From Paludibacteraceae bacterium (GTDB taxonomy: Bacteria > Bacteroidota > Bacteroidia > Bacteroidales > Paludibacteraceae), in the NCBI GenBank assembly GCA_017439235.1, contig JAFSJN010000005.1, forward strand, positions 3,066-67,065: 64,000 bases of DNA. Direction: 5' to 3'. The position numbers and the translations under genes are program-made. Positions 12,800 through 63,604 of the stretch are shown here, piece after piece. How positions within the stretch are numbered: position 1 is the stretch's first letter; each line of letters opens with the position of its first letter. A model generated the notes under the pieces. The model was not told where the DNA came from, made no database searches, and worked only from the letters and a program-made list of their open reading frames with translations.

Positions 12800-12803
12800 A
12801 GTG

Positions 12804-13897: not shown

Positions 13898-13952
13898 CCG
13901 GCAAATTGGATCCTTGACAGGTTGGAAGGAGTGGGGACGGGGAGAAAGGTGT

Positions 13953-13986: not shown

Positions 13987-13989
13987 CTG

Positions 13990-14063: not shown

Positions 14064-14087
14064 ATGCTTTTTTGCGAAAAGCGGGTG

Positions 14088-14119
14088 CAAAGGTACTGCT
14101 TTTTTTTGATATGACCAAA
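14088..14119 (-). promoter_or_regulatory. Promoter for tRNA-Asn
   Basis: caaaggta at 14088-14095 and caaa at 14116-14119, 20-nt spacer. About 30 nt (aaaagcgggtgcaaaggtactgcttttttttga) are nearly identical to the tRNA(CAU) promoter at 2389-2422. Confidence 0.7.
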
Positions 14120-14159
14120 TTTTTTTGAGAAAAAATACAAAAAAACTGATTTTTTAATC

Positions 14160-15877: not shown

Positions 15878-17279
15878 GTTATTTCTGCTCTTAGGTATAT
15901 GGGGTGTCTTATGGGCGTATGCTGCGCCGATAGACCGTCTGACTGAAAATCCCGCTACCACGTGGGCCAATATAGGTGTATATATCAAAAACCTCACTAC
16001 CGGTGAGGTCATCGACTCGTACCGTAGTCGTAATCTTATCCCGCCGGCCTCGACGATGAAACTGTTTTCTACGGCTACCGCCTTGGAGTCGTTAGGCGCC
16101 TCGGCGCGTTATCCGACTATTATAGCCTACAGCGGCTATATCCGCGAGGGTGTGCTGCACGGCGACCTCTACATACGCGGCTATGGAGACCCGACATTGG
16201 GTAATCTGAATAGCGGTACTAACTTCCTCTATCATTGGTCGAACGCCGTACGCAAAGCCGGCATTCGCACCATCACCGGTTCCGTTATCGGCGATGCTTC
16301 CTACTACGACGGCGATGCCCTTAATCCCGGATGGATTTGGGAAGATGTGGGTAACTACTACGCCCCCGGTATCTTTGCTATCGCCTATATGGACAATACC
16401 TGTCATGTGCAACTGCGTAGCGGACCGGTAGGCAGTGTGGCTACGGTCATCAAGACCCTGCCCGACATACCCGGACTGACATTCGAGAATCATATCCGAT
16501 GCACCGAGATAGACTATGACGGAGCGTTTGTGCACGGCCTGCCCTACCAAAACTGCCGTTATCTGACCGGTAGTGTGCCTTCTAACAGAGGTATATTCGG
16601 TGTACAGGGCGACATACCCAATCCGCCGCTCTTGTTGGCGCAACACTTCACGGCACGCCTGTTGGCCGACGGCGTAGAGGTGCAGGGTGCACCGCGTTAC
16701 CTGAGCGAGAGCGATAATCGGCCGACGACGCAACTCTATACCCATTATTCGGACACCTTAGGCTCTATTATCGCCGAGACCAATATGCGGAGTATCAACC
16801 TCTATGCCGAGATGATCTTCCGTAACTTAGGTGCCCGTCGCGGTCTGCCGTGCACTATCCACAATGCTGCCGAGATAGTGAGAGACTTCTGGCACAACAG
16901 AGGTGTCGACTTGCGCACGGCACAGATATTAGACGGCTGCGGCCTGGCTCCGCAAGATGCTATCAGTGCCGAGCACTTTGTCAACCTGCTGGAATATATG
17001 AACCGCAGCGCCAACCGCGAGGTCTTTGAGGCGTCGCTACCGGTGAGCGGAGTAAGCGGGACACTCAAATTCGTCCTGGCGGGCACCGAACTGCAGGGCC
17101 GCGTACATGCTAAATCGGGCACCATCAAAGGTACCAAGAACTACGCCGGCTATATCCTTATGCCCAATGGTGACCGCTGGGCTTTTGCCGTTCTCGTCAA
17201 CTCGGCTACCGGCAAACAACGGCAGATACAACGCGCTATAGAACAGTACCTATTGGATGTATATCAGGCAAACAAATAG
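15864..17279 (+). CDS. dacB: D-alanyl-D-alanine carboxypeptidase/endopeptidase (PBP4, peptidase S13)
   Basis: 471 aa. Signal peptide, PASTMKL (SxxK) and KSGT motifs. Confidence 0.9.
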   Translation: MCMRRLFLLLGIWGVLWAYAAPIDRLTENPATTWANIGVYIKNLTTGEVIDSYRSRNLIPPASTMKLFSTATALESLGASARYPTIIAYSGYIREGVLHGDLYIRGYGDPTLGNLNSGTNFLYHWSNAVRKAGIRTITGSVIGDASYYDGDALNPGWIWEDVGNYYAPGIFAIAYMDNTCHVQLRSGPVGSVATVIKTLPDIPGLTFENHIRCTEIDYDGAFVHGLPYQNCRYLTGSVPSNRGIFGVQGDIPNPPLLLAQHFTARLLADGVEVQGAPRYLSESDNRPTTQLYTHYSDTLGSIIAETNMRSINLYAEMIFRNLGARRGLPCTIHNAAEIVRDFWHNRGVDLRTAQILDGCGLAPQDAISAEHFVNLLEYMNRSANREVFEASLPVSGVSGTLKFVLAGTELQGRVHAKSGTIKGTKNYAGYILMPNGDRWAFAVLVNSATGKQRQIQRAIEQYLLDVYQANK

Positions 17280-50402: not shown

Positions 50403-50468
50403 ACGACTCAACTACGAGACTGGAACGAGGGAATCACGAGACATTAACGAGGCATTAACGAGAGTAAA
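50403..50468. repeat. Six helically phased 11-bp units with an invariant ACGA(G/C) core
   Basis: ACGAC at 50403, then ACGAG at 50414, 50425, 50436, 50447 and 50458, spaced exactly 11 nt apart. The units are acgactcaact / acgagactgga / acgagggaatc / acgagacatta / acgaggcatta / acgagagtaaa. Confidence 0.85.
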
Positions 50469-50510: not shown

Positions 50511-50542
50511 TTTGCGTATATGAAAAAGTTTTTGTATTTTTG
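50511..50542 (+). promoter_or_regulatory. Promoter for the giant ORF
   Basis: TTTG at 50511-50514 and TATTTTTG at 50535-50542, 20-nt spacer. The TTG used as the track ORF start (50540) lies inside the -7 box. Confidence 0.7.
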
Positions 50543-50569
50543 CGGCCAATTTTTAATGTACCTATTAAA

Positions 50570-53500
50570 ATGGCTTGTAAAATGCACATGAAAAGCATGA
50601 GAAATATACGTAGTTGGTCAGTATGCGCTTTGATGTGTGTGGCGCTTTTTTGCTCTCCTGCGCGCATGCATGCTGACGGATGGACGCCGACGGATGGTGG
50701 TTTGGTAGTGAACCTTGAGCAAGGTGATCGCTTCCTGCTGTCGGTAATGGTGGATCATGATAATAACCCGTCCACACCGGATCGAGAGTATTTCGTTGTC
50801 AATTATTCGCGATATGAGGGCGATGACTATTTCCATTACAAGAAAAATGATAAATTCATATATGCGGAAGGTAAACACCTCAAGTTAGCGCAACAGGATG
50901 CCCATGCGACGGAGCCGTCGGAGATGTCCATCTGGTCGGTAGGTGCACCCTTGACACGTGTAATCGGCGGTAAGGATTATTCGTTGGGCGCGAATGCCGG
51001 CCATGTGTATACGATCTGGAATGATGGTAAGACGCTGAGAATGAACAATACCAGCTACCAGTTCTTTGGCGATCTGACGAGTGATTACAACTACAAAGAT
51101 GCTGCAGATGTGGTATTTGTCATTCCGACAACTCATACCGGTATCACTTCTTTTGACCCGAATAAGACCTTAAAAGAGATATATAAACGCGAGGATCAAG
51201 ATGCGACTACTGGTTTGATCAATGGTAAGATCGGAAAGGGTTTCTTGGGCATGACCTACCGCGAGGTATATATGTTGGATATCCCTAAACAGAACAACCC
51301 TATATCGTACACGAATGCATCGCTGGTCTGCTTTAATACTACTGCCAAGGATACAACCTATGCAAAACCCAATGCCGGTTCCGGCCTTAAGGTGGGAAGC
51401 GGTATGCCAGTATATGCCTTTGCGGATCCCAAGCATAGAGCGACGGTCCGTACGCTCTTCCGTCTCTATTTGCTGGATAAACCGTTCAATTATTGCAGCA
51501 GTTATTTCTTTGCGACGGATGGGCAGGACTTCATGAACTACCGCTATACGCAGAGCTTGCCCGGAGATAGTACGGCGAAGAAGAAAATCTACACCATCGA
51601 TTGGATGAGCCCGATGAAGCGTGTCGGTACCTCTGATACCTTCAAAACGGACTTTATGACGGTGCCTACGGATGATAGTACGTGTTACTATGTCGGATAC
51701 AAAAACGATTTCCGTACCACGGGAGAGTCTTTAGGTTCGAATACCGCCAAGTCGGCCTTCAAGAAGATACGTACCTTACCGCTGACGACTTTACCGTCAC
51801 CTTTCGTGGTGCCGGCTGGTGCGTATGGACAGATGGTCGTAGATACGAGTTCAACGGATAACAACTTAGGCGTCAAGTTCGAACCCGCGGGCTATTTCCT
51901 GAAGGTTAGTTCCGGTAAAAACGTCAGCATGCATGATAACGGCGATGGTACCTGGATAACCGAAGAGATGTGGACGATTAACGAGGAATGGGTAGGAAAA
52001 ACTATCAAAGCCACGCTGATGACCGGCGCCAGTTTTAGCGAGACCGACCCGGGAGCGGATGTGGCAGGATGGAGTATTGACGTATCCGGATCGGATGTGC
52101 CGGTAAAGGATCACAGCGATTGGACTCCGGTAGGTCAGTCCGGTTATGCGCAGATCACGACCAGTAGTAATGAAGCAAACGGAGATATGGTCTTTATCTT
52201 AGCGGATCAAACGAAATGGCTTCGCTATGACAACAACGGTTTAGTAGGCTTGGAGATGCCGCTCCAGTATCCTTTGGAAGGTAAAAGTTCTGTAACGCTG
52301 ATGGCGCCTCGTATCAAACCGGGATATACGTTCTACGGTTGGTGCGAGAAAGCCGATGGTTCGAGTGATACCTTAAAGGTGGGCAGTACTTATACATTGA
52401 CAGGAACAGGCGCCGACACGCTATATGCACTTGCTTCGTATGAAGGTACGTTGCATATTGCGATATCGTTTAAAAAGGACGACGGCAAGCGTTACTTCCT
52501 TACCCACCCGGGAACGGGTACCGGTTTCCGTTATGCCCGTGCCCGTCATTTCGATAGTTGGGTAAATACCTGGCAGGGCATGGAGAACGCGCAAAACCTC
52601 AACCCGAACTACCTCAGTACATATGAGGTACGGCACCCGATAGCGAAGATCAAGAAGAAAGACGACGGCGTTATATCCGACATATCTCCCAAAGAGCATG
52701 TGTTGGACCCGCGAAGCTACACGATGAAGGGGCAGACGGACTCGCTGACGTTCTACGAGAACTTCCACCCGACCCATGATGAGTACCTCGGTTTGTACTA
52801 TCAGAGTCCAAACACTATCTTGGCGAACAACACCTGGGCGGGCTTATTCACAACGACCAGTACCGCTCCTACCAGTTGGCCGACCTATTTAGTACCGTAT
52901 ATCGAAAGTGCTAAAATCAAATCCGAGCGGTATGTAGAGGAGTATGATAAGGAGAATAAACCCGATTCGCTGATTCTCAAAAGGCGTATTAATTACACGG
53001 AGCCGTATGTGAAATATGACACTGTAAATGATCAGTTTAACGGACAAGCCGATTCGGCGACTGCCACGGATTTCCAGCTGACGGCTGTATCTGTATCGGA
53101 CGAGCACTATGTCCTGCTGCCGGATACGGCATATGCGTGGCAGGACACGATCACCTTCGATTACCATCAGGCGAGACAGACGACGGAAGATATATGGTCG
53201 GCATTGGTCGGTAAGCAGTTGATGGCGGTAATGGTAGTAGATCGCGATACGGTTTATTTCCACCCGAACCGCAAGAAGCATATCACGGACCCGAACGACC
53301 TGTATCTGTCTCCGGAGTTCCGTATAACGCAGCTCTTTAAATGGATTCCGGATAGCCGTGTAACGACGGTAGCGGAAGAGAACCGTGTGGCCCATTCGAC
53401 AACCGATCACTACTGGCATCATACTGTTACCAGCGGTATGAACAGTCCGATGGACGTGAAGGATAAGAGCGGTAACTATATCGATATCGTCGATACGTTC

Positions 53501-56500
53501 AGTATTACCCTCAGTCAAGGCGCTATCAGTAAGATCAAGAAATACTACGGTCGCTGGGAGAAGCAAGGCGAAGATGACGGTTTGACGGTTAGTGCCGACG
53601 GTTTGACGCGTCAGCGCAATATTATCGTCAAGACCAAGACCTATCACTATGGTGAAGAGCAGACACGTATGGTGCTCAAGCCGGAGAAAGAGAGTTATGA
53701 TTTCGGTCCGCTGGCAAACCAATCGCAGAAGATCAATTTCATTCTCACCCGCGTACATGTCCATGACTTATTGGATGCGCAGGGTAATTTTGTGCGTGAA
53801 GATATCATCTCCATCGATACTTTGACAACGCAGTTAGGTATGCAGCCGGGTCAGTGTACGTTTAGGGTTGGTACCGCCTTTGAAAAGGTAGAGGCTGAAA
53901 CAAGGGATAGTCATGCTACAGTTCGCGTAATAAACGATAATACCTCGGGTATCAACTACGATACGTTGGTTGTGACGGGATACCTATATGACAACAAACC
54001 TCAAACGTGCGATGTACGTATACCGTTGATGCAAGCGCCTCTGGAAGGAAATGATTTGTTGTGGTCGGTTATGCATAACGGTCAGCGTTATTTCATCATG
54101 GCAGGAAAGGGGACGACCCAAGACAGTCTTATCTTCCGTCAATACACCCAACGCGGCAACACGCTTTATAAGCGCATCGGAGGAAATCAGCTGATCATGG
54201 GAGCTAAAGACAAGACGAACCGCGATGAAGGATACATCACACCTTGGCAATTTACCTATGTCGATAAGGAAAATCACCAGTTCACGCTCAAGATCGGATT
54301 AACGAGCGATACGCTTCTCTTCAACATAGCAAGTGCGGCCACTCCTGCTGTTGGTGATTCCGCGAGTACATTGACGTATGTGTTTACGGATGTGTACGCA
54401 AACGACAACGCGAACTACGAGGAGCAGGTGAAACTCAAGTACGGACCGAATAATTGGCTGAAGTTCAACGGTTCGGCACTGGAGTTGACGACAAATGAAT
54501 TGGAGGCGGACACTTTCTCGTTGGCTTACCCGCTGCTGGAGTTCAACCTGCTCAATAATGGTACGTACCCCAGCCAAAATCAAGCTGCGTTCGGTTATAA
54601 TGCTACGGCATCGGCATCGATCACAACGGCGTACCAAGGATACTGCGAGTACTCCACGCTGCTGGATAATAAATTGACGTATTTCGCACGTGAGTCGCGA
54701 AACACACGTGAAGCTTTGACCAGTACGGATGCGGCCTATCGCTGGAAGACGACTTGTAAGATCGATACGTTGCGTGACAGGCGCACAACTACGGAGAGTG
54801 GTTTGACATTTAGTAATAGCAGTAATAGTTTTACCTCCACGATCACGCCTACGGGCTTGAGTCCGCGCAATGTGAAGGACGCAAGTGGCAACCATATCGA
54901 TATTGTGGATACGCTGTGTGTGACGCTCGGTCTGCAAACGGATGCTCCTTCGTATCGGTTTAAAGGCGATTGGAGCGGATTCAAGCGCATTGATGACGGT
55001 AATCTGAAGATACCTTTGGTACGTAAAACTTATCATGAGGCAAGTTTCGACTCATTGATCTGCGAGGAAGTGACGAAAGCCGAACGACACTCATTCCCGG
55101 CGGTACTTACAGAAGGTGTCAACGATACGGTTCTGCTGAAATTCAGCACGATCCGTCGTGAGGGTACCCGTTTGCTGAATACAGCGAACGAAGTGATTTC
55201 CGTCATCAGTTCAACATCCTCCTATGTGACGCGTGATATCAAGTATAAAAATGACAGTAGTACCGACAGTATCAAGGGTATGCACCTCAACAACAAGGAC
55301 TTAGCCGAGGTGCGTCTGATGGATGAATACGGTAATACACCTACGTGGTGCAAGATCAAAGCGAAGGGCGATAGTACGGTGACGATACAGTGTTTATCGG
55401 ACGGTGTGCGTTCTCCGCGTTCAACGGAACTCTATCTCGTCTATGTCATCACCATAGAGGAGAACATGCGCATTTTGACCTACCATGTGACCATATCGCA
55501 AGCCAGCCATTTCGATTATGCCAATAACCAGCGGTTGATTCATACCTCCGGTGCGTCAGGTGACCCAATTGGTGCATACGGTTTGCAGCAGGTGCATCAG
55601 AACAAGCGCATCCTTTATTACTATCCGGAACAAGATGTTGAATTACCGGTTCGTGAACGTAACTTCTACGGATGGTGGCGTTGGTACAGAGAAGGACTCG
55701 ACGTGAAGGGCGATTCCGTCTCGGATTCCGATGTACCTGATTCGATATGGCGTTTACCGCCTCGCAATGTAGGTAAATACAACTACCCATACCGTATCAT
55801 CGGCGACTCGGTGATGTTAAAGAAAAAGGATGGGACGGACTCTGTAAAGGTGTTGGTAACGATGGGTCGCTGGACGGTATTCCACTACAGGTCAGAAGAC
55901 TACGGCGGATCGAAGAAAGATCCACCTGCTAAGAACCCGCGTGTAGCGCCGCCGATCACCGAGTTGGGATTAGCTACCAAGCCGACCTTGACTTACGCTG
56001 TCGATATCAGTAACTACTACGATAATCTGCCGATGTCCTTATCGCAGAAGAACCAAGTCGATACGGCCTTGTTGGATACGATTCTGGAGATTAAAGAACC
56101 GACCCTTTCGCTGCGCGAAGTGTTTGAACTGCACCCGTGGACAGAGATGGCAGACACGCTGAATCATTATAAGAGTCTGAGAACGACAAACGACGAGGGT
56201 GAGTATGAGTTAGAGAATGAGCATTATATGGAGGATCATGTAGTCATGGCGCCTACGGGCAATAAACTGTTGCTCTCTACGGAACAACGCTACAACGTTA
56301 ATAATGTTCATGAAGGCGGTTCCTCGGAGTCCTTGTTGGGATATTACATGCTCGACGATAACTGGTGGAAATGGAGCGCCAACAGAGTGCGTCAGGATAC
56401 GATGATCTGGTGCGGCGGTTGGGATGCCGACTGCTTATGGTACACCTATAACCCCCGCTCCAAGACATACACAAGGTGCAATTTATCCATCACCAAGGCC

Positions 56501-59500
56501 GATGACTTCCTGCAAGTGCCGGTGAGGAACAATGTGGATACGGTTTATTATTGTTTGCGTGCACGCAGTAAGAAATCAACCTTCTCCACCGATGGGGACA
56601 ACGCTACAGTAACTACGGTAGAGGGCGACAGCATGTTCAACATCTGCCGTTACAAAGTCTGCTATCACTATCCGTATAAATACGGACCGAGAATGGAGAC
56701 GATATTGAATAATATCCCCAAAGCGTTGATTACCAACGATGAGATCGAGCAGAAGTATGATGTATTGGAGCGGTTGAACTTCGATTACAATGAACCCGGT
56801 CCCGGCTACACCGTTTATCCGCACCCGCTGCCTTGGGGCGATGCATCGTACGGTTATACCTATCCGGAGACCTCGGATCTGCCGCATAACCGCCTTCACA
56901 AAGAGACCGACTTCCCGAACCACGGCGAGTACGGTCTGATCAACCGCTTCCCCTACACCTCCTACTGGAATAAGATGGAGCAGCATGGCGGTGCCGAAAA
57001 AGGTTACATGATTTACTGCGACGGTATGTCTTCGTCCGGTCAGGTAGCCGCCCTCTCGCTCTCTACCGTCCTTTGTTCGGGTCAGAAGATGTTCCTCTCT
57101 GCTTATGTAGGTAACCCGAGTAACCAAACCGGAAAAGCGAATCCGAACTTTATTTTCTCCATACAGGGTAAGACGGATGATATGTTGGATTGGGAAGACA
57201 TCACGACCTATATAACCGGCGATATAGAGCCGGCGACCAGGTGGTATCAGATCCTTATTCCGATTAACCACACCCGTTCCCACAAAGAGGAGTACGAACA
57301 TTTCCGTATTCGTATCTATAACTTAGCGTCGAATTTCGACGGAAACGACTTCATCATCGACGACCTGTGCGTCTTTGCTACCAAACCGCCGTTGATCGCT
57401 TATCAGGCCAATACGGCATGTAAGGAGGAAGATTCTGAAAAGGATACACACGTGATCATGCGTATTGACTACCAGGGTATCCCTTCCGATGATGAGTATA
57501 ACAACGACACCGTTTACTATACGGTCCGTAAAATTCACGGCGATACAAGTTTCATAGCGCTGACCGATCATTATTTGGGCGAGCAGACATACGGTGGTGC
57601 GGATAAGGATACCCCGAGTGTGTACGGTAAGTTGTATATCCCGGCAAAAAACTATGTACCGACAAGCGAAGACTCGGTCTTCGTTAACCTGAACGACTTG
57701 TTAGACCGCTTCGATGAGACCTATAAAGCATATAAAGCGCATGAAGAAGACCCTGCGCTACCGGAGGTGGATATCTTCCGGGAAGGCTATATCTATGAAA
57801 CATTGGAGGGCATCAGTCGTCCGGTGAAGTATGTGATACACAACGCGCTGATGGATCCGGAAGATACGATCACGGTGCATATATCCGGTGAAGTCAGGGA
57901 ATTGCTAAATAGTATCTGCGGTATGACGAGCCATTTGCACGTGAGCAACCGGATGGTGCTCGAACTGAACGGTCTGGAGAACCCCCATACGGAAGTAACT
58001 GGTCTATGCGTCAACTCGACCTATGACATCAGTCTGCGCGTGAAAGGTTCGCTTTATCTGGACAGCGTGGCTCCGATTGACCTCAACGGCTCGTGTATCA
58101 ACGACTGGTTGCTCTACGGCGATACGGCGGATGCGTCGAGCAATGAACGGTACGGCTACTACTACAGCGATATCAAGAAGGTGATCACCGAGATCCTGCG
58201 TACGGAGCCGATGTCCTACAGAACGAACAGGAACCAGTTTGCGCCGAACCTCTCGTCCATCAATAAGAGTGATTTAAGGTATTATGCTGCCGGCAAGAAA
58301 TTCAAGCAATCCGGGCTGGATCCGTACACTCTCATCTCGGATTTGGTGAAGAAAGGTTTCCTCACGCTCTATAAGTCGAAGATCACGACGACGGTGACTA
58401 CCGGCGACTCGGCGAAATACGTCATCTTCCCGATTGTAGGAACCGGTACGGACGCGCTCAACAAAGCGAATGTAGAGGTTTGTCCGCTGCCAATCGTCGT
58501 CAAACTCAAACCGGATGAGTCAGCGGCCGGTGTGCCGTTGATGATAGGTGGTTTGCATCGTGATACGACGGAAATTTCCAAACCTATTGAGGTGCTGATG
58601 TCGGAGAAAGCAGCGAACGAAGGATTTAAGTTGATAGTTGATTCCATTATGCCCCTTGTCGGTATCAAAAATATCACGCTTCGTTCGACCAATGACCCGA
58701 ACTTCCGCGAAGGAGTACACTCGCTGCGCTTATTACCGGATATCTCGTATCCGACATCGGGTACTTATTACACAAAGGGTGATAGTATAGACTTTTCTCC
58801 GGCTCCTGGCAGTTATCACATGCAACCGGGTTATAGTTATACTTTTAATGTTGTGATGCAGACGTTTGGCGGTTTGGATACCTTAGTCGGTGGTTGCGCC
58901 GTAGGTACGATACCGTTTATTCTCTCCGTCATGCCCGACTACCTGCGTTGGGATCCGCAGTCTGCACAAAGCAACGAGTGGAATAATGCCGATAACTGGA
59001 TAGGTGTTACGAAAGAGAATGTGCCCATCCATGAGGATGCCCACTATGCCCCGATGGCCGAAACGTATGTGGTTATTCCTCAAGTGGAGGCCGGTCTGCC
59101 TTATCCTGTAGTGCCCCCGTTGCCAACCGTATGGAAAGACTCGGTACAGAAGGTGAACTTTGAGTACAACAACTGTAATGTGATTCGTTTCTTGCCGGGT
59201 GCTGCGATGGGTCAGCAGCAAAGGATGCGTTATAGCGATGCGGTTATCGATATGGAGATGCCGCAACAAAAATGGGCGTTCCGTGCAGCTCCGGTAACCG
59301 GTATGCTGAGTGGAGATATCTATATGTCGAACGTCGACCTCAACTGGGCATCCAACCCGTGGAAGGTGGCTGAGTTTGATGCCAGTGGTCGTTCGTATAA
59401 GACAGGTAACGGATCGTTCTGGCTGTCGGTTTATAGTCGCAATACGATTCATCAAACCGAAGATGAGACGGAGGCGCGCTCGGCAAAAGCAGACTGGTCA

Positions 59501-60733
59501 AAAGTAACAAATGGTCTTAATCTCTCGTTGCCGGCCGGACAGGGATATGCCGTATATGCGCGTACCAAATCCGGCAAAGACGCTGTAGTACGTCTGCCTA
59601 AGCATGACGATATCTACTATTACTACGGCTCGTATGGCGAGACCCTCTATGACCACTATGTGAACGAATTGGAAACGGCGCGTAGCACGAATGCGGCACC
59701 CAGAACAGCCGGTAAATTGGCGTTCCATGAGGACAGCGAGGGGTATACCATGAGCAATGATAACTCGGTATCCACGACGGGCTTCGTATTCGGCAATCCC
59801 ACAATGGGTTATATTGATATATGGGGCTTCATTGATGACAATTGTCTGGTAGAGGAATTCGGTTATTTGGACGAGAGTGGTGCGGCCAGTATCTATCGGA
59901 CTGTTAGCAGGGAAGCGGCGATGGCCTCCACGGATACGATTATTGAGCAGAAGCGCTACTTGCCGCCGATGCGCTCCATCATGGTGCAGAAGTCGTCAGC
60001 GGCTACTTCACTTCCTGTGACGCTCAATTCCAACCGCGTGGTGACAGATCCAAGTCAGGTAGTTCCCTCTGTTCGATGTGGCGGCGGAGATGACCAAAGT
60101 CTGGCTCAAACTCCCCAACGCGGCGATGCTGCCGTTTTGCGAAAAGGTATTATGACCGTCACGGCTATTAACCCCTGCTCGCCGCGATGCACTTCGTATC
60201 TGTTGCTCGGTCAGGGTTATCACGCCGATATACTGTCCGGAGAGGATGCCTTATTGACGACCCTCAATATCGATAACTTCTCCACGACCGGTACTCCGAC
60301 TACACCTTTTAATATATACGCGAAGGAGGATAGTTGTGGATTGAGTATTGACCTTAGGGACGAGATTGTCAATGTACCGATATCGTTCTATATGAGTAAG
60401 ATGACGTACGACAATGTGACTCATCTGTGGTTTACAGGTGTAAATGCTATTGACGGACCGTTGGTTCTTTACGATGCACAGACAGACACCGAGCGTGCGA
60501 TTATCGATGGTATATGCCTGGATATCGCTACTCCGAAGACCAATCACGAGACACGCTACTATATCCGTCGCCGCGGATGGACTCCGGATAGCGGTTGGGG
60601 AAGCGGAGTAACTACCGACATACGCCCCGTATCTGCAGAAACGAATCAGACGATGAAGATTATTCACGAAGGTCATGTACTGATCATCCGTAATGGTCAA
60701 GTATTTACCATGATGGGACAACAAGTAAGATGA
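50570..60733 (+). CDS. Giant secreted/surface protein of unknown family (~3,387 aa)
   Basis: Uninterrupted 10.2-kb frame. The first ATG after the promoter is 50570, with in-frame alternatives at 50582, 50588 and 50597. Signal peptide MKSMRNIRSWSVCALMCVALFCSPARMHA. Only patchy resemblance to known modules (see findings). Confidence 0.85.
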   Translation: MACKMHMKSMRNIRSWSVCALMCVALFCSPARMHADGWTPTDGGLVVNLEQGDRFLLSVMVDHDNNPSTPDREYFVVNYSRYEGDDYFHYKKNDKFIYAEGKHLKLAQQDAHATEPSEMSIWSVGAPLTRVIGGKDYSLGANAGHVYTIWNDGKTLRMNNTSYQFFGDLTSDYNYKDAADVVFVIPTTHTGITSFDPNKTLKEIYKREDQDATTGLINGKIGKGFLGMTYREVYMLDIPKQNNPISYTNASLVCFNTTAKDTTYAKPNAGSGLKVGSGMPVYAFADPKHRATVRTLFRLYLLDKPFNYCSSYFFATDGQDFMNYRYTQSLPGDSTAKKKIYTIDWMSPMKRVGTSDTFKTDFMTVPTDDSTCYYVGYKNDFRTTGESLGSNTAKSAFKKIRTLPLTTLPSPFVVPAGAYGQMVVDTSSTDNNLGVKFEPAGYFLKVSSGKNVSMHDNGDGTWITEEMWTINEEWVGKTIKATLMTGASFSETDPGADVAGWSIDVSGSDVPVKDHSDWTPVGQSGYAQITTSSNEANGDMVFILADQTKWLRYDNNGLVGLEMPLQYPLEGKSSVTLMAPRIKPGYTFYGWCEKADGSSDTLKVGSTYTLTGTGADTLYALASYEGTLHIAISFKKDDGKRYFLTHPGTGTGFRYARARHFDSWVNTWQGMENAQNLNPNYLSTYEVRHPIAKIKKKDDGVISDISPKEHVLDPRSYTMKGQTDSLTFYENFHPTHDEYLGLYYQSPNTILANNTWAGLFTTTSTAPTSWPTYLVPYIESAKIKSERYVEEYDKENKPDSLILKRRINYTEPYVKYDTVNDQFNGQADSATATDFQLTAVSVSDEHYVLLPDTAYAWQDTITFDYHQARQTTEDIWSALVGKQLMAVMVVDRDTVYFHPNRKKHITDPNDLYLSPEFRITQLFKWIPDSRVTTVAEENRVAHSTTDHYWHHTVTSGMNSPMDVKDKSGNYIDIVDTFSITLSQGAISKIKKYYGRWEKQGEDDGLTVSADGLTRQRNIIVKTKTYHYGEEQTRMVLKPEKESYDFGPLANQSQKINFILTRVHVHDLLDAQGNFVREDIISIDTLTTQLGMQPGQCTFRVGTAFEKVEAETRDSHATVRVINDNTSGINYDTLVVTGYLYDNKPQTCDVRIPLMQAPLEGNDLLWSVMHNGQRYFIMAGKGTTQDSLIFRQYTQRGNTLYKRIGGNQLIMGAKDKTNRDEGYITPWQFTYVDKENHQFTLKIGLTSDTLLFNIASAATPAVGDSASTLTYVFTDVYANDNANYEEQVKLKYGPNNWLKFNGSALELTTNELEADTFSLAYPLLEFNLLNNGTYPSQNQAAFGYNATASASITTAYQGYCEYSTLLDNKLTYFARESRNTREALTSTDAAYRWKTTCKIDTLRDRRTTTESGLTFSNSSNSFTSTITPTGLSPRNVKDASGNHIDIVDTLCVTLGLQTDAPSYRFKGDWSGFKRIDDGNLKIPLVRKTYHEASFDSLICEEVTKAERHSFPAVLTEGVNDTVLLKFSTIRREGTRLLNTANEVISVISSTSSYVTRDIKYKNDSSTDSIKGMHLNNKDLAEVRLMDEYGNTPTWCKIKAKGDSTVTIQCLSDGVRSPRSTELYLVYVITIEENMRILTYHVTISQASHFDYANNQRLIHTSGASGDPIGAYGLQQVHQNKRILYYYPEQDVELPVRERNFYGWWRWYREGLDVKGDSVSDSDVPDSIWRLPPRNVGKYNYPYRIIGDSVMLKKKDGTDSVKVLVTMGRWTVFHYRSEDYGGSKKDPPAKNPRVAPPITELGLATKPTLTYAVDISNYYDNLPMSLSQKNQVDTALLDTILEIKEPTLSLREVFELHPWTEMADTLNHYKSLRTTNDEGEYELENEHYMEDHVVMAPTGNKLLLSTEQRYNVNNVHEGGSSESLLGYYMLDDNWWKWSANRVRQDTMIWCGGWDADCLWYTYNPRSKTYTRCNLSITKADDFLQVPVRNNVDTVYYCLRARSKKSTFSTDGDNATVTTVEGDSMFNICRYKVCYHYPYKYGPRMETILNNIPKALITNDEIEQKYDVLERLNFDYNEPGPGYTVYPHPLPWGDASYGYTYPETSDLPHNRLHKETDFPNHGEYGLINRFPYTSYWNKMEQHGGAEKGYMIYCDGMSSSGQVAALSLSTVLCSGQKMFLSAYVGNPSNQTGKANPNFIFSIQGKTDDMLDWEDITTYITGDIEPATRWYQILIPINHTRSHKEEYEHFRIRIYNLASNFDGNDFIIDDLCVFATKPPLIAYQANTACKEEDSEKDTHVIMRIDYQGIPSDDEYNNDTVYYTVRKIHGDTSFIALTDHYLGEQTYGGADKDTPSVYGKLYIPAKNYVPTSEDSVFVNLNDLLDRFDETYKAYKAHEEDPALPEVDIFREGYIYETLEGISRPVKYVIHNALMDPEDTITVHISGEVRELLNSICGMTSHLHVSNRMVLELNGLENPHTEVTGLCVNSTYDISLRVKGSLYLDSVAPIDLNGSCINDWLLYGDTADASSNERYGYYYSDIKKVITEILRTEPMSYRTNRNQFAPNLSSINKSDLRYYAAGKKFKQSGLDPYTLISDLVKKGFLTLYKSKITTTVTTGDSAKYVIFPIVGTGTDALNKANVEVCPLPIVVKLKPDESAAGVPLMIGGLHRDTTEISKPIEVLMSEKAANEGFKLIVDSIMPLVGIKNITLRSTNDPNFREGVHSLRLLPDISYPTSGTYYTKGDSIDFSPAPGSYHMQPGYSYTFNVVMQTFGGLDTLVGGCAVGTIPFILSVMPDYLRWDPQSAQSNEWNNADNWIGVTKENVPIHEDAHYAPMAETYVVIPQVEAGLPYPVVPPLPTVWKDSVQKVNFEYNNCNVIRFLPGAAMGQQQRMRYSDAVIDMEMPQQKWAFRAAPVTGMLSGDIYMSNVDLNWASNPWKVAEFDASGRSYKTGNGSFWLSVYSRNTIHQTEDETEARSAKADWSKVTNGLNLSLPAGQGYAVYARTKSGKDAVVRLPKHDDIYYYYGSYGETLYDHYVNELETARSTNAAPRTAGKLAFHEDSEGYTMSNDNSVSTTGFVFGNPTMGYIDIWGFIDDNCLVEEFGYLDESGAASIYRTVSREAAMASTDTIIEQKRYLPPMRSIMVQKSSAATSLPVTLNSNRVVTDPSQVVPSVRCGGGDDQSLAQTPQRGDAAVLRKGIMTVTAINPCSPRCTSYLLLGQGYHADILSGEDALLTTLNIDNFSTTGTPTTPFNIYAKEDSCGLSIDLRDEIVNVPISFYMSKMTYDNVTHLWFTGVNAIDGPLVLYDAQTDTERAIIDGICLDIATPKTNHETRYYIRRRGWTPDSGWGSGVTTDIRPVSAETNQTMKIIHEGHVLIIRNGQVFTMMGQQVR

Positions 60734-61152
60734 TGCAAGGAATGAAAATATATAGATGGATGTTGATAGCATGGCTGCTATTATGCAGCGTGTCCTCCGC
60801 CTGGGCGTGGGGACAGACTACACCATCTGCGGCGTGGAATGCGGCGCCGACTATGAGTCAGGATGTGTATCCAACGTATCAGTTCCGCTCCACTTCTACG
60901 TGCCAGCCGATAGTAGGTCAGACTTCGTATACCTCCAATCCTTATGCTCCGGGAGCAACAGGAGTGCGTAGAGCACAGAGGGATGGTGAAGGAACAACGT
61001 ATAATCCTGAAGGTTGGAATGAAGATGAGAATGAACCTATCGGATTCGTGAATACGGAGCCCGTAGGTGAACCTTATATACTGCTCCTGTTGGCCGCCTT
61101 GTATATGGCGGTAGTGGGTCTTAAAAGAATGCGTCAAGAGAGGAGAAAGTAA
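60730..61152 (+). CDS. Small secreted, C-terminally anchored protein coupled to the giant ORF
   Basis: 140 aa. Its ATG 60730 overlaps the giant ORF's TGA (ATGA). Signal peptide MKIYRWMLIAWLLLCSVSSAWA, a T/S/P/Q/Y-rich middle, an acidic patch, then GEP-YILLLLAALYMAVVGL-KRMRQERRK. Confidence 0.7.
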   Translation: MMQGMKIYRWMLIAWLLLCSVSSAWAWGQTTPSAAWNAAPTMSQDVYPTYQFRSTSTCQPIVGQTSYTSNPYAPGATGVRRAQRDGEGTTYNPEGWNEDENEPIGFVNTEPVGEPYILLLLAALYMAVVGLKRMRQERRK

Positions 61153-62957
61153 TGGATTCATTTGTGTTTTTGGGTTTTGGAGCGGATGCATGGATTACCA
61201 TCATCACGGTATTTGTGATGTTCACCATCCTGCTGTTTACCAAACTGCGCTCGGATGTAGTCTTTCTGTGCGCTGTAGGCGTGTTATATGTCACCGGAGT
61301 ATTGGATACTAAAGAGACGCTGTCGGGTATCAGTCAGGCTTCGGTAGCGGTAGTCGGTGTGCTATTTGTGGTTATTGCCGGATTGATGCATACGGGCGTG
61401 CTTCAATGGATTGTGAAGCATTTGCTGGGCATTCCTAAGACGTATGCTAAAGCCGTGTTGCGACTGATGCTGCCTGTAGCAGGTCTGAGTTCATTCCTGA
61501 GCAATACGACCGTGGTGGCGCTATTCGTAAACATCGTTAAGATGTGGTCGAAGAAATTAGGAGTGTCGCCATCGAAACTGCTTATTCCGCTAAGTTATGC
61601 GTCCGGTATGGGTGGCGTATGTACGTTGATAGGAACACCACCGAACCTGATTATCAGTGGTCTATACGAAGAACATACGGGGCACGCGATGAATATATTG
61701 GCTACCACTATTCCGGGACTCTTCTGCCTGGCTATCGGTGTGCTGTCGATTATCGCCATGCGGCGATTGTTGCCGAATAGGAAGTCGCCTGAAGAGGCGT
61801 TTGAGAGTACGGGTGACTACACGGTGGAGATGTTGGTGCCGTCCGATAATTCGCATATCGGCATGAGTATAGGTGAGTTGGGATTGAATAAGGTGAACGG
61901 AGGCAGCCTGATTGAGTTGCGTCATTTTGATGACGAAAAGATATTATCTCCTGTGCCGGACGATGAGCCGCTGATGGGTGGTGACCGCCTCATCTATGCC
62001 GGTCAGATAGGGGAGTTGTTGGAGTTGGAGATGACGCACGGCTTGGTTAATGCCGACCATCCGGTGTTCCATTATGAAGATGCCCCGAAGAACCGGCATC
62101 ACCTGCGTACGGCGTATGTCCATTTTGGCAGTAGTCTGATCGGTACCACGATGGGAACGAACGGCTTTGAAAAAGAACATAACGTGACCCTGGTGGCCGT
62201 CAGTCGTAGAGGTAGCCGTATAGAACAATCGCCGCGAGAGGTAGTATTGAAGGCGGGTGATACATTGTTGATGGAAAGCGTGAATGCACTGACCACCGAC
62301 ACTCAATCGATGAGTCGCGATTTGCATTTCTTTGAATCGGAAGATATACCCAATATAGGATGGGGAACTGTGGTGTCCAGTTTGGTGATGATTAGTATGG
62401 TCGCCTTGTCGGCATTAGGAGTGATGCCGCTACTACAATGTGCTATATTGGCTGTTTTTGCGATGCTTATCTTCCGTTGTTGCACCCCCGAACAGGCTAT
62501 GCGGTCGGTCAACTGGGATATACTGATGATCTTTGCCTGCAGCACCGTATTGGGTATTGCTATTCAGAAAACGGGTATAGCAGAGCGTATGGCGACCGGT
62601 ATATTGGACGTATGCGGTACGAATCCGATAGTAGTGATGACGGCTATCTGCTTTGCCGGAACGTTTATCACGGAGTTTATCTCGAATACGGCTGCCGGAG
62701 CGATGTTTTTCCCCATCATGTATGAGGCGGCAGAGAAATTAGGGTATGAGCCTTATCCGTTCTTGATAGCGCTGATGATAGCGGTAAGCAGCAGTTTTGC
62801 AACGCCTATCGGTTCGCCGACACACATGTTGGTATACGGTCCAGGCGGATATAGGTTCAGCGATTTCCTGAAGATAGGTCTGATAATGAACCTTATCATC
62901 TTGGCGGCGAATATTTTGATTGTCAATATCGTCTATCCGTTAACGCCCCTACCATGA
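61152..62957 (+). CDS. SLC13/DASS-family permease with two internal TrkA-C (RCK_C) domains
   Basis: 601 aa. Multi-TM N- and C-terminal halves flank a soluble duplicated segment (IGELGL...GDRLIYAG / ...GDTLLMES). Its ATG shares one base with the preceding TAA. Confidence 0.85.
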   Translation: MDSFVFLGFGADAWITIITVFVMFTILLFTKLRSDVVFLCAVGVLYVTGVLDTKETLSGISQASVAVVGVLFVVIAGLMHTGVLQWIVKHLLGIPKTYAKAVLRLMLPVAGLSSFLSNTTVVALFVNIVKMWSKKLGVSPSKLLIPLSYASGMGGVCTLIGTPPNLIISGLYEEHTGHAMNILATTIPGLFCLAIGVLSIIAMRRLLPNRKSPEEAFESTGDYTVEMLVPSDNSHIGMSIGELGLNKVNGGSLIELRHFDDEKILSPVPDDEPLMGGDRLIYAGQIGELLELEMTHGLVNADHPVFHYEDAPKNRHHLRTAYVHFGSSLIGTTMGTNGFEKEHNVTLVAVSRRGSRIEQSPREVVLKAGDTLLMESVNALTTDTQSMSRDLHFFESEDIPNIGWGTVVSSLVMISMVALSALGVMPLLQCAILAVFAMLIFRCCTPEQAMRSVNWDILMIFACSTVLGIAIQKTGIAERMATGILDVCGTNPIVVMTAICFAGTFITEFISNTAAGAMFFPIMYEAAEKLGYEPYPFLIALMIAVSSSFATPIGSPTHMLVYGPGGYRFSDFLKIGLIMNLIILAANILIVNIVYPLTPLP

Positions 62958-63604
62958 GCGGTCACTCGTCCATAATCGTTCCGGAAGGCTGTCATCAAGT
63001 GTTGCTGCATGCCTGTTGTGCGCCATGCTCGAGTGCGATAGTAGAATGGCTGTTGGCGCACGATATAGAGCCGGTCATATACTACTATAATCCGAATATC
63101 TATCCGCGTGAGGAGTACGAGATTCGCAAGCAGGAGAGTCAACGTCATGCTCAGAGTCTGGGAATCATGTGGATAGATGATGACGGGTTACGGGGTATGG
63201 GTTACGGGAAGGCCCACGAAGCTTGGCGCGAAGCGGTCTGCGGCCTCGAGAACGAACCCGAACGAGGCAGACGCTGCGAGACTTGTTTTTACTTCCGTTT
63301 ACTCGCTACGGCTCGCAAGGCACAGAAGTTAGACATCCCCTTCTTCGCCACCACGCTGGCCTCATCGCGGTGGAAAAACCTCGACCAAATCAACGCCGCG
63401 GGACGGAAAGCGCAGGAAGCGGTTAGGGATGACGGGTTACGGGTGACGGGTGACGGGACACCGATATTCTGGCCGCAGAACTGGCGCAAAGACGGACTGC
63501 AGGAACGGCGTAACGAGTTGCTTAGAACCTATCAATTCTACAATCAACAGTACTGCGGTTGCGAGTTTTCGTGCGCAAATAGCAGTGCGGGAATGAAAAA
63601 ATAA
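62954..63604 (+). CDS. queH: Epoxyqueuosine reductase QueH
   Basis: 216 aa. LLHACCAPCS and C-terminal CGCEFS cysteine motifs match the DUF208/QueH family. ATGA overlap with the permease gene. Confidence 0.88.
   Translation: MSGHSSIIVPEGCHQVLLHACCAPCSSAIVEWLLAHDIEPVIYYYNPNIYPREEYEIRKQESQRHAQSLGIMWIDDDGLRGMGYGKAHEAWREAVCGLENEPERGRRCETCFYFRLLATARKAQKLDIPFFATTLASSRWKNLDQINAAGRKAQEAVRDDGLRVTGDGTPIFWPQNWRKDGLQERRNELLRTYQFYNQQYCGCEFSCANSSAGMKK

Follow-up and report, generated by a model that had tools for sequence, protein, structure and literature searches.

A giant gene and a small partner in a core-gene window

The window, by which we mean the whole 64-kb stretch of Paludibacteraceae DNA analysed, carries on its forward strand a giant gene and, overlapping its stop codon, a small partner gene. 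The features at this locus, from the upstream region to the partner, are as follows.

50403..50468, + strand: six tandem 11-bp units with ACGA[GC], about 70-130 bp upstream of the promoter boxes
50511..50542, + strand: candidate Bacteroides-type promoter, TTTG (-33) at 50511 and TATTTTTG (-7) at 50535 with a 20-nt spacer; a pattern match only
50597..60733, + strand: coding sequence of the giant protein, 3,378 aa, with the start of the 100% identical NCBI protein P0001
50597..50674, + strand: predicted Sec (type I) signal peptide, residues 1-26, cleavage after ...RMHA
60730..61152, + strand: partner gene encoding a 140-aa putative bitopic protein, its ATG overlapping the giant stop codon TGA at 60731-60733 (ATGA)

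A preliminary description of this DNA had reported a single uninterrupted plus-strand frame from 50540 to 60733, and inspection of the frame and its translation confirmed it: the frame runs without a break for 3,397 codons counted from the TTG, and stop-free translation from the ATG at 50570 yields 3,387 aa. That ATG had been taken as the first usable start. The frame is indeed open from there, but the identical 3,378-aa protein P0001, from an NCBI MAG of a Paludibacteraceae bacterium, begins at the ATG at 50597 (MRNIR...), and the N-termini of homologues align best with starts at 50588 or 50597; the in-frame alternatives to 50597 lie at 50570, 50582 and 50588. Given the expected frequency of stop codons in DNA of about 49% GC, an open frame of 3,400 codons cannot have arisen by chance. 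The full-length frame is preserved in more than 100 independent assemblies, and the giant ORF is a real, intact and conserved gene.

The N-terminus has the layout of a Sec signal peptide, with a basic n-region, a hydrophobic core and A-x-A, followed by the mature start (V/D)GWTPTDGG. The hydrophobic region and A-x-A are conserved among homologues, and the GWTP immediately after is invariant, so that the homologue alignment upholds the Sec-type signal noticed earlier. Because a Cys occupies the lipobox position in only 2 of 99 homologues, the signal is type I and not that of a lipoprotein. The computed composition (T 9.1%, D 7.3%, Y 6.1%, N 5.7% and W 1.7%) bears out the richness in W, Y, T, D and N that had been described. 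Self-BLAST detected no near-identical repeats within the giant protein, in agreement with the earlier view that it is not a train of such repeats; with one ancient duplication only, a repeat-train adhesin was ruled out.

The gene had also been credited with its own consensus promoter preceded by a phased array. Bacteroides sigma-AB promoters have a -33/-7 consensus, and both a pattern match to this pair and six phased copies of ACGA[GC] are present, the latter at 50403, 50414, 50425, 50436, 50447 and 50458 with a spacing of exactly 11 bp. Of about 60 homologous loci, L065 alone has a similar 11-bp array, built from another unit. The array is therefore not a conserved element of the module, and a conserved regulator site was rejected as its explanation (2 of about 60 loci, units differing). 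The genes flanking the giant gene are housekeeping genes, as expected from its description as the sole large non-housekeeping element in a core-gene window. A horizontal-transfer island was rejected on GC content, which is 0.46-0.51 in the gene versus 0.47-0.53 in the flanks.

Family, domains and modelled folds

A protein search with the giant protein returned 320 matches, the best 120 of which are full length with 51-100% identity. Altogether there are more than 100 full-length homologues of 3,200-3,440 aa, 48-100% identical, and pairwise identity within the family is at least 48% throughout. Conservation is even from end to end, length is fixed, and invariant motifs include H..GASGD and WCGGWDADC. 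As to the distribution of the gene across Bacteroidales, a question raised by the preliminary description, the full-length homologues come from ruminant-gut MAGs only, as does every one of the 70 homologue loci (Paludibacteraceae/Bacteroidales). Thirteen MAGs hold at least two copies, 2-3 copies per genome are frequent, and full-length paralogues number 1-3 per genome, at times in tandem.

None of the reference collections searched gave this family a name. The giant protein has no passing match in Pfam, no match in NCBIfam and no match among PDB sequences, and a 53-sequence family profile likewise produced no usable match against the three. Homologues are named 'hypothetical' or 'InlB B-repeat-containing' in all sources. 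These searches show the family to be uncharacterised, consistent with the earlier remark that the protein has hardly any nameable family signature; a full-length match to a characterised adhesin or enzyme family was looked for in Pfam, NCBIfam and PDB and was not found.

Alignment tiles, profiles and AlphaFold2 (AF2) models of segments nonetheless divide the protein into the following parts.

52226..52429, + strand: probable InlB B-repeat / Listeria-Bacteroides repeat-like domain (PF09479, Flg_new, 23.4 bits; gathering score 27)
52466..53854, + strand: duplicated module, copy 1, residues about 624-1086 (hhalign on alignment tiles)
54065..55300, + strand: duplicated module, copy 2, residues about 1157-1568 (hhalign on alignment tiles)
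55454..60586, + strand: conserved superfamily body, residues about 1620-3330, collinear with Bacteroidales relatives of 1,550-2,700 aa
55934..56776, + strand: predicted alpha/beta region, residues about 1780-2060 (AF2 block pLDDT mostly 75-95)
56930..57466, + strand: predicted CBM4/9/22-like / MAM-like beta-jelly-roll, residues about 2112-2290 (AF2 and Foldseek), with motifs MIYCDGM ... GNDFIIDD
60371..60571, + strand: predicted last beta-sandwich ('...LVLYDA..T..ER...RYYIRR'), AF2 strands at residues 866-932 of the C-terminal segment
60653..60730, + strand: conserved C-terminal tail of about 25 aa, KIIHEGHVLIIRNGQVFTMMGQQVR, at the site of the first CTD strands of relatives

Judged by its homologues, the N-terminal part of about 1,600 aa is a clade-specific extension. 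The sub-threshold match to PF09479 is the sole Pfam signal in the giant protein. A precomputed PF09479 match is present in about 30 of the best 120 homologues, one of them named 'InlB B-repeat-containing', and residues 544-611 likely form one Listeria-Bacteroides repeat domain. The likeness to surface proteins built on this repeat thus consists of one probable domain, together with neighbouring Flg_new-repeat genes whose products carry the giant protein's C-terminal tail; the repeat accounts for only about 2% of the giant protein, and does so below the Pfam threshold. Downstream of it, profile tiles revealed exactly one internal tandem duplication of about 450 aa per copy (hhalign probability up to 99%, E 5e-18), matching the one duplication reported before.

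The remainder of the protein belongs to a much broader group. A profile search against 1.8 billion cluster representatives retrieved 379 clusters at E<=1e-3 and 117 at E<=1e-30, mostly of 1,550-2,700 aa. The HMM covers the body collinearly in 114 relatives, with E down to 1e-218, and Parabacteroides proteins match the body in a reciprocal search. Residues 1640-2010 are the portion of the body least common to distant relatives. Residues conserved across the superfamily are G, P, W, Y, C, D and N, together with a GNDFxxDD acidic cluster; no catalytic-looking set of His, Ser, Glu or Cys conserved superfamily-wide was found. A zinc protease was considered on account of a single HExxH (residue 2812) and rejected, the Glu not being kept in the family consensus. 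Some relatives contain lectin-type modules of the RicinB/Fascin or F5/8-type-C kinds. By sequence comparison, including the C-terminal domains described below, the giant protein is a member of a large unnamed Bacteroidales superfamily of big T9SS-type cargo or surface proteins.

The AF2 models of segments are of moderate quality (pLDDT 70-71). A Foldseek search against PDB gave 56 matches at E<=1e-3, and the best 50 of the 56 are mostly jelly rolls of the CBM/MAM type (HpiC1/FamC1, CBM22, CBM4-2, CBM16, CBM27 and meprin MAM; E 7.5e-6 to 4e-4), with a target TM of about 0.5-0.55 for single-domain targets. The jelly roll was positioned from alignment lengths of about 130-175 columns and from motifs; block pLDDT over it is about 55-89. 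It is here that the strongest superfamily conservation falls (D2142, C2160, W2216, N2242 and GNDF..DD). The models show that the predicted fold of residues about 2112-2290 resembles CBM4/9/16/22/27 and MAM jelly rolls (PDB 4xup, 2y64, 2zez, 1pmj, 4gwm, 6al6), although identity is only 12-18% and no CBM or MAM sequence model matches the giant protein. Because the listed PDB matches are mostly these jelly-roll alignments of about 130-175 columns, they assign no fold to residues about 1780-2060. In Foldseek searches the C-terminal 985 aa gave nothing at E<=1e-3 against PDB, and low-TM noise only against viral predicted structures. Within this segment, the last beta-sandwich aligns with relatives that have a classic CTD (hhalign probability 96.6%, E 5e-10), in which it precedes the CTD.

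The C-terminal tail and the partner protein

TIGR04183 matched 45 of 54 sampled C-termini from the listed full-length superfamily relatives. One relative, P0172, scores 38.1 bits with this model (cut-off 23) and 27.3 bits with PF18962 (gathering score 27), and another, from Paludibacteraceae, is named 'T9SS type A sorting domain-containing protein' by NCBI. The superfamily profile also matches solved CTDs, namely RgpB (7pq4, E 1.9e-5), 8glk, 5hfs and HBP35 (5y1a). These profile matches show that most of the listed full-length relatives carry a C-terminal T9SS type A CTD.

The whole clade of the giant protein ends instead in the short tail, without a recognisable CTD. Neither TIGR04183 nor PF18962 matches the whole giant protein at E<=0.1 or the isolated tail at E<=10, and scans of the isolated tail against Pfam and NCBIfam at E<=10 returned nothing relevant. 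The tail has the consensus K-[IV]-[IL]-x-[ND]-G-x-[LIV]-x-I-x-[RK]-x-G-x-x-Y-x-x-x-G-x-x-V and is modelled by AF2 as a disordered linker followed by three short strands. Both hhalign and MAFFT place it on CTD strands b1-b3, the alignments stopping at the b3-equivalent strand. Taken alone, the tail is only weakly similar to a CTD: in relatives' CTDs a tail HMM scored slightly higher on the N-terminal half, with a mean of 0.6 bits (>5 bits in 7 of 104), than on the C-terminal half, with -0.75 (none >5 bits), a weak signal on either half, compared with -2.6 and -1.9 for shuffled controls. The tail might alternatively be the counterpart of the last 22 CTD residues (motifs D and E). At one locus (L015), the end of a tandem paralogue is CTD-like, scoring 38 bits on an HMM built from relatives' CTDs and 19 bits with TIGR04183 (cut-off 23), and the adjoining copy bears the short tail. 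The tail also terminates unrelated surface-type neighbour proteins (LRR, DUF285, Flg_new) in these genomes.

The type A CTD folds as an Ig-like 3+4 beta-sandwich of strands b1-b7, with an Lb3b4 loop and a C-terminal motif that is conserved (PMC11285876), and C-terminal motifs of the CTD are reported to be required for T9SS secretion (PMC10202324, PMC11285876). As the giant protein ends after the b3-equivalent strand, it should not be a classical T9SS substrate. It resembles type A CTD cargo (TIGR04183 / PF18962; P. gingivalis RgpB, HBP35) in its Sec signal peptide, in its large multi-domain and presumably extracytoplasmic body, and in having its tail where the CTD starts in relatives. It differs in that its clade lacks the seven-stranded sandwich and motifs D and E, ending in about 25 aa of three predicted strands, and in that no CTD model detects it. 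A classic T9SS cargo is encoded in the same genome: locus L086, 100% identical to positions 1-10711 of the window, extends further upstream and has, 7.6-9.3 kb before the window, a gene for a Peptidase_C10 protein that matches TIGR04183 (27.8 bits, cut-off 23), which points to a T9SS in this organism. The genes porK-N, sov, porU and porV were absent from the 64-kb window and from about 20 kb of flanks, and a literature search on Paludibacteraceae or Paludibacter with T9SS found nothing specific.

The partner protein begins with a signal peptide and carries a conserved P-x-Y-x-F-[RQ]-S-T-S motif; an acidic stretch and PVGEP come next, then a TM helix followed by a basic tail. Its length ranges from about 110 to 200 aa across the family. 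In the preliminary description it was a translationally coupled, small tail-anchored protein. The ATGA overlap agrees with the coupling; the anchoring needs revision, since a signal peptide in addition to the C-terminal TM helix makes the partner a type I bitopic protein and not a strictly tail-anchored one. The partner HMM has a single match in the 64-kb window, and it matches 75 of 85 loci, distant relatives included, which bears on the earlier question of whether the small downstream ORF always accompanies the giant gene. In four distant-relative contexts (L076, L080, L082/L083 and L084) the partner lies upstream, and in two others (L077-79 and L081) it is absent. It is a near-obligate companion gene across the superfamily. 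The partner also lies beside relatives with an intact CTD, and the idea of a split CTD whose other half it supplies was rejected for this reason. It has no Pfam or NCBIfam match and no homologue of known function; a profile search found 496 relatives, none of them named and none with a Pfam match.

Two known arrangements invite comparison. Type B CTD cargo, SprB with SprF among them, is paired with PorP-like partners (PMC9143113), and here too a giant protein of apparent T9SS lineage stands beside a dedicated small gene that travels with it across genomes. The present partner is, however, predicted to be bitopic with one TM helix and does not belong to the PorP/SprF outer-membrane beta-barrels, a type B CTD (TIGR04131) is missing from the giant protein, and no sequence search gave any similarity to SprB. 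The other comparison, offered as a lead only, is with PEP-CTERM/exosortase sorting signals, which have a tripartite C-terminal architecture: the partner's short motif with Pro and Glu (P[VI]G[ED]P), its hydrophobic helix and its basic cluster lie at or near the C-terminal end, but many copies have additional residues past the basic cluster. NCBIfam sorting-signal models did not match the partner at E<=0.1, and the locus flanks examined contained no exosortase or rhombosortase genes. One speculative scheme, to which we give a rather low probability, is that the tail is an undescribed sorting or anchoring signal of rumen Bacteroidales, either a 'mini-CTD' that the T9SS still reads or a tag for surface retention that works without the T9SS, and that the partner is a dedicated escort or anchor, possibly processed in a PEP-CTERM-like manner, the two forming a new display route for giant proteins.

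Proposed role and its alternatives

With modest confidence, we favour the reading that the giant protein is an exported cell-surface protein of T9SS lineage with a non-enzymatic, adhesin-like role in binding glycans or particles, working with its small membrane partner. It would be exported by Sec with cleavage of the type I signal peptide, and would consist of four parts: an N-terminal extension of about 1,600 aa, a mostly beta-rich body of about 1,700 aa whose best-conserved element is the CBM/MAM-like jelly roll, probably Ca-binding, the last beta-sandwich and the tail of about 25 aa. In this rumen Paludibacteraceae bacterium the protein would most likely be delivered to the cell surface, where it may bind glycans or particles, and the partner may serve as its envelope tether, escort or anchor. 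A secreted or cell-surface location is supported by homology, because hundreds of Bacteroidales proteins match the C-terminal part of about 1,700 aa collinearly, and a CTD ends most of the full-length ones listed. Ligand binding is plausible because of the CBM/MAM-like jelly roll, the lectin-type modules in some relatives and the lack of a conserved catalytic set. The preliminary description had likewise proposed a giant binding protein, at the cell surface or secreted, from a family not yet characterised, a view that the unnamed family, the CTD-bearing relatives and the jelly roll support.

CBM-like domains commonly travel with catalytic modules, and the Foldseek matches to CBM22, CBM4 and CBM16 could accordingly be read as the targeting part of a secreted or surface enzyme, the jelly roll directing a novel glycoside hydrolase, lyase or protease module in residues about 1780-2060 or in another body domain to plant polysaccharide. 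Large multi-modular cellulases are secreted via T9SS in rumen Bacteroidales (PMC5831590); moreover, residues 1780-2060 are modelled confidently yet have no fold match, and the invariant H..GASGD and WCGGWDADC lack an explanation. We nevertheless judge an enzyme unlikely: Pfam, NCBIfam and PDB sequence searches returned no enzyme family, the superfamily-conserved residues are of structural types and include no His/Ser/Glu/Cys set, the family consensus does not keep the only HExxH (2812), and residues 1640-2010 are those least common to distant relatives.

A different possibility, about equally improbable, is that loss of the full CTD abolished outer-membrane translocation and left in the envelope, in the periplasm or at the inner leaflet, a giant structural or periplasm-spanning protein tethered by an inner-membrane partner. 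By the positive-inside rule a helical TM segment followed by a basic tail points to the inner membrane, as the partner's C-terminus would, and even conservation with a fixed length suits a structural component better than a fast-evolving adhesin. The tail also lacks b4-b7 and the C-terminal motif that matter for T9SS export (PMC11285876, PMC10202324). Against retention in the envelope, the partner also stands beside relatives with an intact CTD and so would not be a substitute for secretion, and the strong conservation of the tail and its reuse on LRR, DUF285 and Flg_new proteins argue that it actively serves sorting or anchoring and is no remnant. CBM-like and InlB-repeat modules, moreover, are typical of extracellular proteins. 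Fixed length and even conservation would also fit a coat- or S-layer-like structural protein whose 1-3 full-length paralogues per genome, at times tandem, assemble a layer, and here the T9SS-cargo lineage is a further parallel, the Tannerella S-layer proteins TfsA/TfsB being T9SS-secreted. The T. forsythia S-layer is the stated subject of PMC4604654. No sequence or structural likeness to any S-layer protein was found, which makes such a layer quite improbable. To our knowledge, moreover, known Bacteroidota S-layer subunits are all far smaller than 3,400 aa.

Rumen Paludibacteraceae are abundant and uncultured, and an adhesin-like surface protein, as proposed here, would bear on their attachment to feed particles and on the processing of these. 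Beyond what the preliminary description had recognised, the analysis adds three things: the T9SS-cargo superfamily, the replacement of the CTD by an uncatalogued tail and the near-obligate partner. The superfamily, of at least 379 clusters, is undescribed: neither Pfam nor NCBIfam has a model for it, and no structure of the body has been solved. The two-gene module with a small, predicted bitopic protein is likewise undescribed. The tail that takes the place of a T9SS CTD and is reused on unrelated proteins bears on the minimal signal read by the T9SS or by shuttle proteins; if it is a working signal, CTD-based predictions of the T9SS secretome would undercount cargo in these bacteria.

Giant gene, its signal peptide and its surroundings

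The frame that the preliminary description reported as uninterrupted is open on the plus strand over 3,397 codons (50540..60733), with stop-free translation from the ATG at 50570 (3,387 aa). A Paludibacteraceae MAG at NCBI encodes an identical protein (P0001, 'hypothetical protein IJP52_01360'), which begins at the ATG at 50597 and has 3,378 aa; residues of the giant protein are numbered here from that start. The giant protein begins with a type I signal peptide, in agreement with the Sec-type signal proposed earlier; homologues conserve its basic n-region, hydrophobic core and A-x-A cleavage site. An invariant mature start, (V/D)GWTPTDGG, follows A-x-A directly in these homologues, and a Cys occupies the lipobox position in only 2 of 99. 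The composition is 9.1% T, 7.3% D, 6.1% Y, 5.7% N and 1.7% W.

The gene is flanked by housekeeping genes (SecDF, MutL, UvrB, FabF, Asd, acetate kinase/Pta, SmpB, CitMHS transporter and QueH), as expected from the core-gene surroundings first described, and its GC content is the same as that of its flanks. Both elements previously read upstream, a consensus promoter and a phased array, are present as patterns: TTTG at 50511 and TATTTTTG at 50535 fit the Bacteroides-type -33/-7 pair by pattern match, forming a candidate promoter, and upstream of these boxes six ACGA[GC] units lie at a spacing of exactly 11 bp (50403-50468). Among ~60 homologous loci a comparable 6 x 11-bp array was found only in L065, with a different unit; the array may act less as a conserved operator than as a variable tandem repeat that influences expression. 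Immediately preceding the giant gene or a relative, AraC-type (HTH_18) regulator genes are found at L001:6674-7870 and L076:1734-4034, and uncharacterised ORFs of similar size (391-396 aa) occupy that position at L015:6996-8171 and L051:2637-3827. The window has no AraC-type gene upstream of the giant gene; a PepSY-like gene on the opposite strand is found there.

Downstream, the TGA of the giant gene overlaps the ATG of a 140-aa partner ORF at 60730, consistent with the coupling to a small protein gene that had been claimed. The partner ORF, a CitMHS/TrkA_C transporter gene (61152-62957) and QueH (62954-63604) share a strand with overlaps of 1 and 4 nt (60730-63604) and may therefore be co-transcribed with the giant gene in the window; genes 3' of the partner differ in other genomes (SSB, ribosomal protein L19 and others). 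Elsewhere in the window, a 911-aa ORF at 6589-9324 (-) is largely an antisense artefact against 7573-9381 (+), where gene calls on the identical contig give a 302-aa Rce1-like (CPBP) intramembrane protease (-) and a 602-aa BipA GTPase (+). A 745-aa protein encoded at 17257-19494 (+) is an unusual fusion of a BPL_LplA_LipB biotin/lipoate ligase (residues 41-144) and a CotH kinase (388-708).

Conservation, superfamily body and predicted folds

The giant protein had 320 matches among the 5.8 billion proteins searched, the best 120 being nearly all full length (3,200-3,440 aa) at 51-100% identity. Scanning one genome per GTDB species yielded 70 loci, all in gut MAGs of cattle, sheep, goat, yak, buffalo or deer labelled Paludibacteraceae or 'uncultured Bacteroidales', with two or three copies in 13 MAGs; the scan used two exact peptide patterns and therefore sets no bound on the taxonomic range of the family. 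Copies are at least 48% identical pairwise in a star-like pattern, and conservation is even over the full length, highest at residues ~1650-2300. An artefact or pseudogene is for practical purposes excluded.

The reported lack of a nameable family signature was upheld. The only Pfam match is Flg_new (InlB B-repeat) at 23.4 bits, under the gathering score of 27; NCBIfam gave nothing, nor did PDB sequence searches, whether run with the protein alone or with a profile of 53 sequences. About 30 of the best 120 homologues listed have a recorded PF09479 match, and one homologue among those listed is named 'InlB B-repeat-containing'.

A profile of residues 1561-2740 recovered 379 clusters at E<=1e-3 (117 at E<=1e-30) among 1.84 billion cluster representatives. 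Matches outside the window clade are mostly proteins of 1,550-2,700 aa and, by an HMM of residues 1620-3378, collinear with the giant protein (E-values down to 1e-218) from ~1640 (some relatives) or ~2010 (nearly all) to ~3330. The giant protein is therefore, on alignment, a clade-specific N-terminal extension of ~1,600 aa joined to a superfamily body of ~1,700 aa. The only relatives named at genus level are proteins of Parabacteroides and 'Bacteroidales bacterium' from isolates and MAGs of insect guts; all are 'hypothetical' and match the window clade reciprocally. Some relatives of that clade carry RicinB/Fascin-type or F5/8-type-C modules. Residue types conserved superfamily-wide are G, P, W, Y, C, D and N, including D2142, C2160, W2216, N2242, a GNDF..DD cluster, W..D.NW (2795-2801), RLPK (2999-3002) and GNP (3066-3068). 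The longer form of one motif, W...W..D.NW (LRWDPQ...EWNNADNWIG; residues 2785-2801, nt ~58949-58999), looks like the opening of autotransporter-associated beta-strand (PATR) repeats; NCBIfam gave no match in support of this.

Self-BLAST revealed no internal repeats, so the protein is not a train of near-identical repeats, as had been noted, and the single duplication claimed for it was recovered by profile-profile comparison.

Features of the giant protein (residues)
~624-1086 and ~1157-1568: single ancient tandem duplication (profile-profile alignment of tiles, prob 99%, E 5e-18)
~1547-1560, ~2378-2393 and ~3158-3172: gap-rich linkers (family alignment)
~1780-2060: confident alpha/beta region (AF2 model)
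~2112-2290: beta-jelly roll (AF2 model)

The AF2 model of residues 1561-2378 is of moderate confidence (mean pLDDT 71, pTM 0.68). Foldseek gave 56 PDB matches at E<=1e-3, and most of the 50 listed are jelly rolls of CBM or MAM type, including HpiC1/FamC1 cyclases, CBM22, CBM4-2, CBM16, CBM27 and meprin MAM (alignments of ~130-175 columns; target TM ~0.5-0.55 for single-domain targets). From alignment length and motifs, we assign these matches to the predicted MIYCDGM...GNDFIIDD domain. The model of residues 2394-3378, also of moderate confidence (pLDDT 70, pTM 0.64), is mostly beta with confident blocks; it had no PDB match at E<=1e-3, and a comparison with viral predicted structures gave only noise.

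Two kinds of C-terminus and type IX secretion

About 105 of 113 full-length relatives listed end, by eye, in '...VYD..GR......LP.GVY.V......K.V.K'. The C-termini of 45 of 54 sampled relatives match TIGR04183, the T9SS type A sorting domain (CTD), at E<=0.01; P0172 scores 38.1 bits (cut-off 23) and 27.3 bits with PF18962 (gathering score 27), and P0155 scores 26.3 bits with TIGR04183. Against the PDB, the superfamily profile matched only solved T9SS CTDs, through its C-terminal end alone: RgpB (7pq4, E 1.9e-5), 8glk, 5hfs/5ag8 and HBP35 (5y1a). One Paludibacteraceae relative is a 'T9SS type A sorting domain-containing protein' according to NCBI. To judge from these sequences, the superfamily relatives are T9SS cargo. 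No core T9SS genes were seen in the ~84 kb of the window's genome examined. L086, which extends that genome (100% identity over window 1-10711), encodes a streptopain-like Peptidase_C10 protein at 423-2105, which is 7.6-9.3 kb upstream of window position 1; because this protein passes TIGR04183 (27.8 bits, cut-off 23), the host of the giant gene very probably has a T9SS. An AbiEii/DUF4143 cluster lies near the Peptidase_C10 gene.

The last beta-sandwich of the giant protein ('...LVLYDA.T.TER...RYYIRR') aligns with the pre-CTD domain of relatives (hhalign prob 96.6%, E 5e-10). A variable linker follows, and the protein then terminates in ~25 conserved residues (in the window copy, KIIHEGHVLIIRNGQVFTMMGQQVR), which AF2 predicts to form three short strands; the same tail is found on seven relatives outside the window clade. 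Independently, hhalign and MAFFT placed it on CTD strands b1-b3, so that the protein stops at the end of the 'VYD..GR.I' strand. The similarity is weak: the tail alone against the CTD gave P 1.5e-3 by hhalign, versus 0.09 for a reversed control, and with a tail HMM the CTDs of relatives scored on average 0.6 bits in their N-terminal half and -0.75 bits in their C-terminal half, versus about -2 to -3 bits for shuffled controls. Published work describes the type A CTD as a 3+4 sandwich with a functionally important C-terminus and b3-b4 loop (PMC11285876); secretion requires its final 13-22 residues (motifs D and E), which sufficed in one case (PMC10202324). As the giant protein ends at the b3-equivalent strand, it does not carry a classical type A CTD, and the window clade as a whole is without this domain.

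The tail also ends an unrelated 1,079-aa DUF285/LRR/Flg_new protein encoded near a giant-type gene, and ORFs of 128 to >1,125 aa at seven loci (L006 to L057 below); its consensus on such neighbours is ...TGI[DE]... K[IV][LI].[ND]G.[LIV].I.[RK].G..Y...G..V. A decaying remnant was rejected, the tail being highly conserved and terminating unrelated proteins. On sequence grounds it is a modular C-terminal tag; neither Pfam nor NCBIfam holds a model for it.

Tail-bearing unrelated ORFs beside giant genes
L006:2-3380
L009:2137-3853
L014:1-1585
L026:14551-16321 (-)
L030:3361-3748
L039:1-484 (-)
L057:1050-3645
L077:121-3360 and 4184-4438

Partner protein and proposed role

Parts of the partner (60730-61152, +, 140 aa)
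Signal peptide and near-invariant P-x-Y-x-F-[RQ]-S-T-S motif
Variable Ser/Thr/Gly-rich linker, PRR motif and acidic W..DP.DD.PIG stretch
P[VI]G[ED]P, replaced in some copies by P.GD.PW; a single hydrophobic helix; basic tail

Where a window-type locus extends into the 3' flank, the partner essentially always follows the giant gene at a distance of -4 to +22 nt (+53 at one locus). Other neighbouring genes vary from locus to locus. Its HMM matched in 75 of 85 loci, once within the 64-kb window; the ten without a match are five that end before the 3' end of the giant gene, L038, and the distant-relative loci L077-79 and L081. Among distant relatives, the partner is upstream of the giant-type gene in four contexts, with P-V-G-D (L076, L080, L084) or P-I-G-D (L082/L083) as its motif, and its stop overlaps the start of that gene in L080 and L082/L083. 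These relatives have a classic CTD end in L080 and L082/L083 and the short tail in L076 and L084. Because it accompanies both end types, the partner goes with the superfamily body rather than with the kind of C-terminus. None of the 496 members of its family is named or has a Pfam match. We take its tripartite end to resemble PEP-CTERM-type sorting signals, as a lead only; no curated NCBIfam sorting-signal model matched, and no sortase-like gene was linked to it at the loci examined.

The giant protein is conserved, bears an export-type signal peptide and is descended from T9SS cargo. That it is a novel enzyme seems unlikely; the superfamily-wide conserved positions include no catalytic-looking residue set. 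We give equally little credence to a structural protein kept in the envelope after CTD loss; the classical CTD is missing, and the tail in its place is highly conserved. A coat or S-layer-like protein is less probable still. The most probable reading is a surface-binding protein, which would reach the cell surface via the T9SS, with the tail as a reduced signal, or via a related route. There the CBM-like jelly roll and beta-rich body would bind glycans or feed particles, and the bitopic partner may act in the envelope as escort, tether or anchor. The giant protein would work most like the large T9SS surface adhesins, although it lacks their CTD. Its dedicated neighbour recalls the SprB-SprF and type B CTD/PorP pairs (PMC9143113), but the partner is a different kind of protein from SprF/PorP. 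Superfamily body, tail and partner all appear to be undescribed in the libraries and papers searched.

Both end types co-occur in the same genomes. L015 (MAG RUG14367) contains a tandem pair of superfamily genes, both with a partner of their own directly after them: one (1-6522) has a CTD-like end (38 bits with an HMM from relatives' CTDs; 19 bits with TIGR04183, under the cut-off of 23) and the other (8288-18894) the short tail. This pair offers a natural side-by-side comparison of both end types within one MAG.
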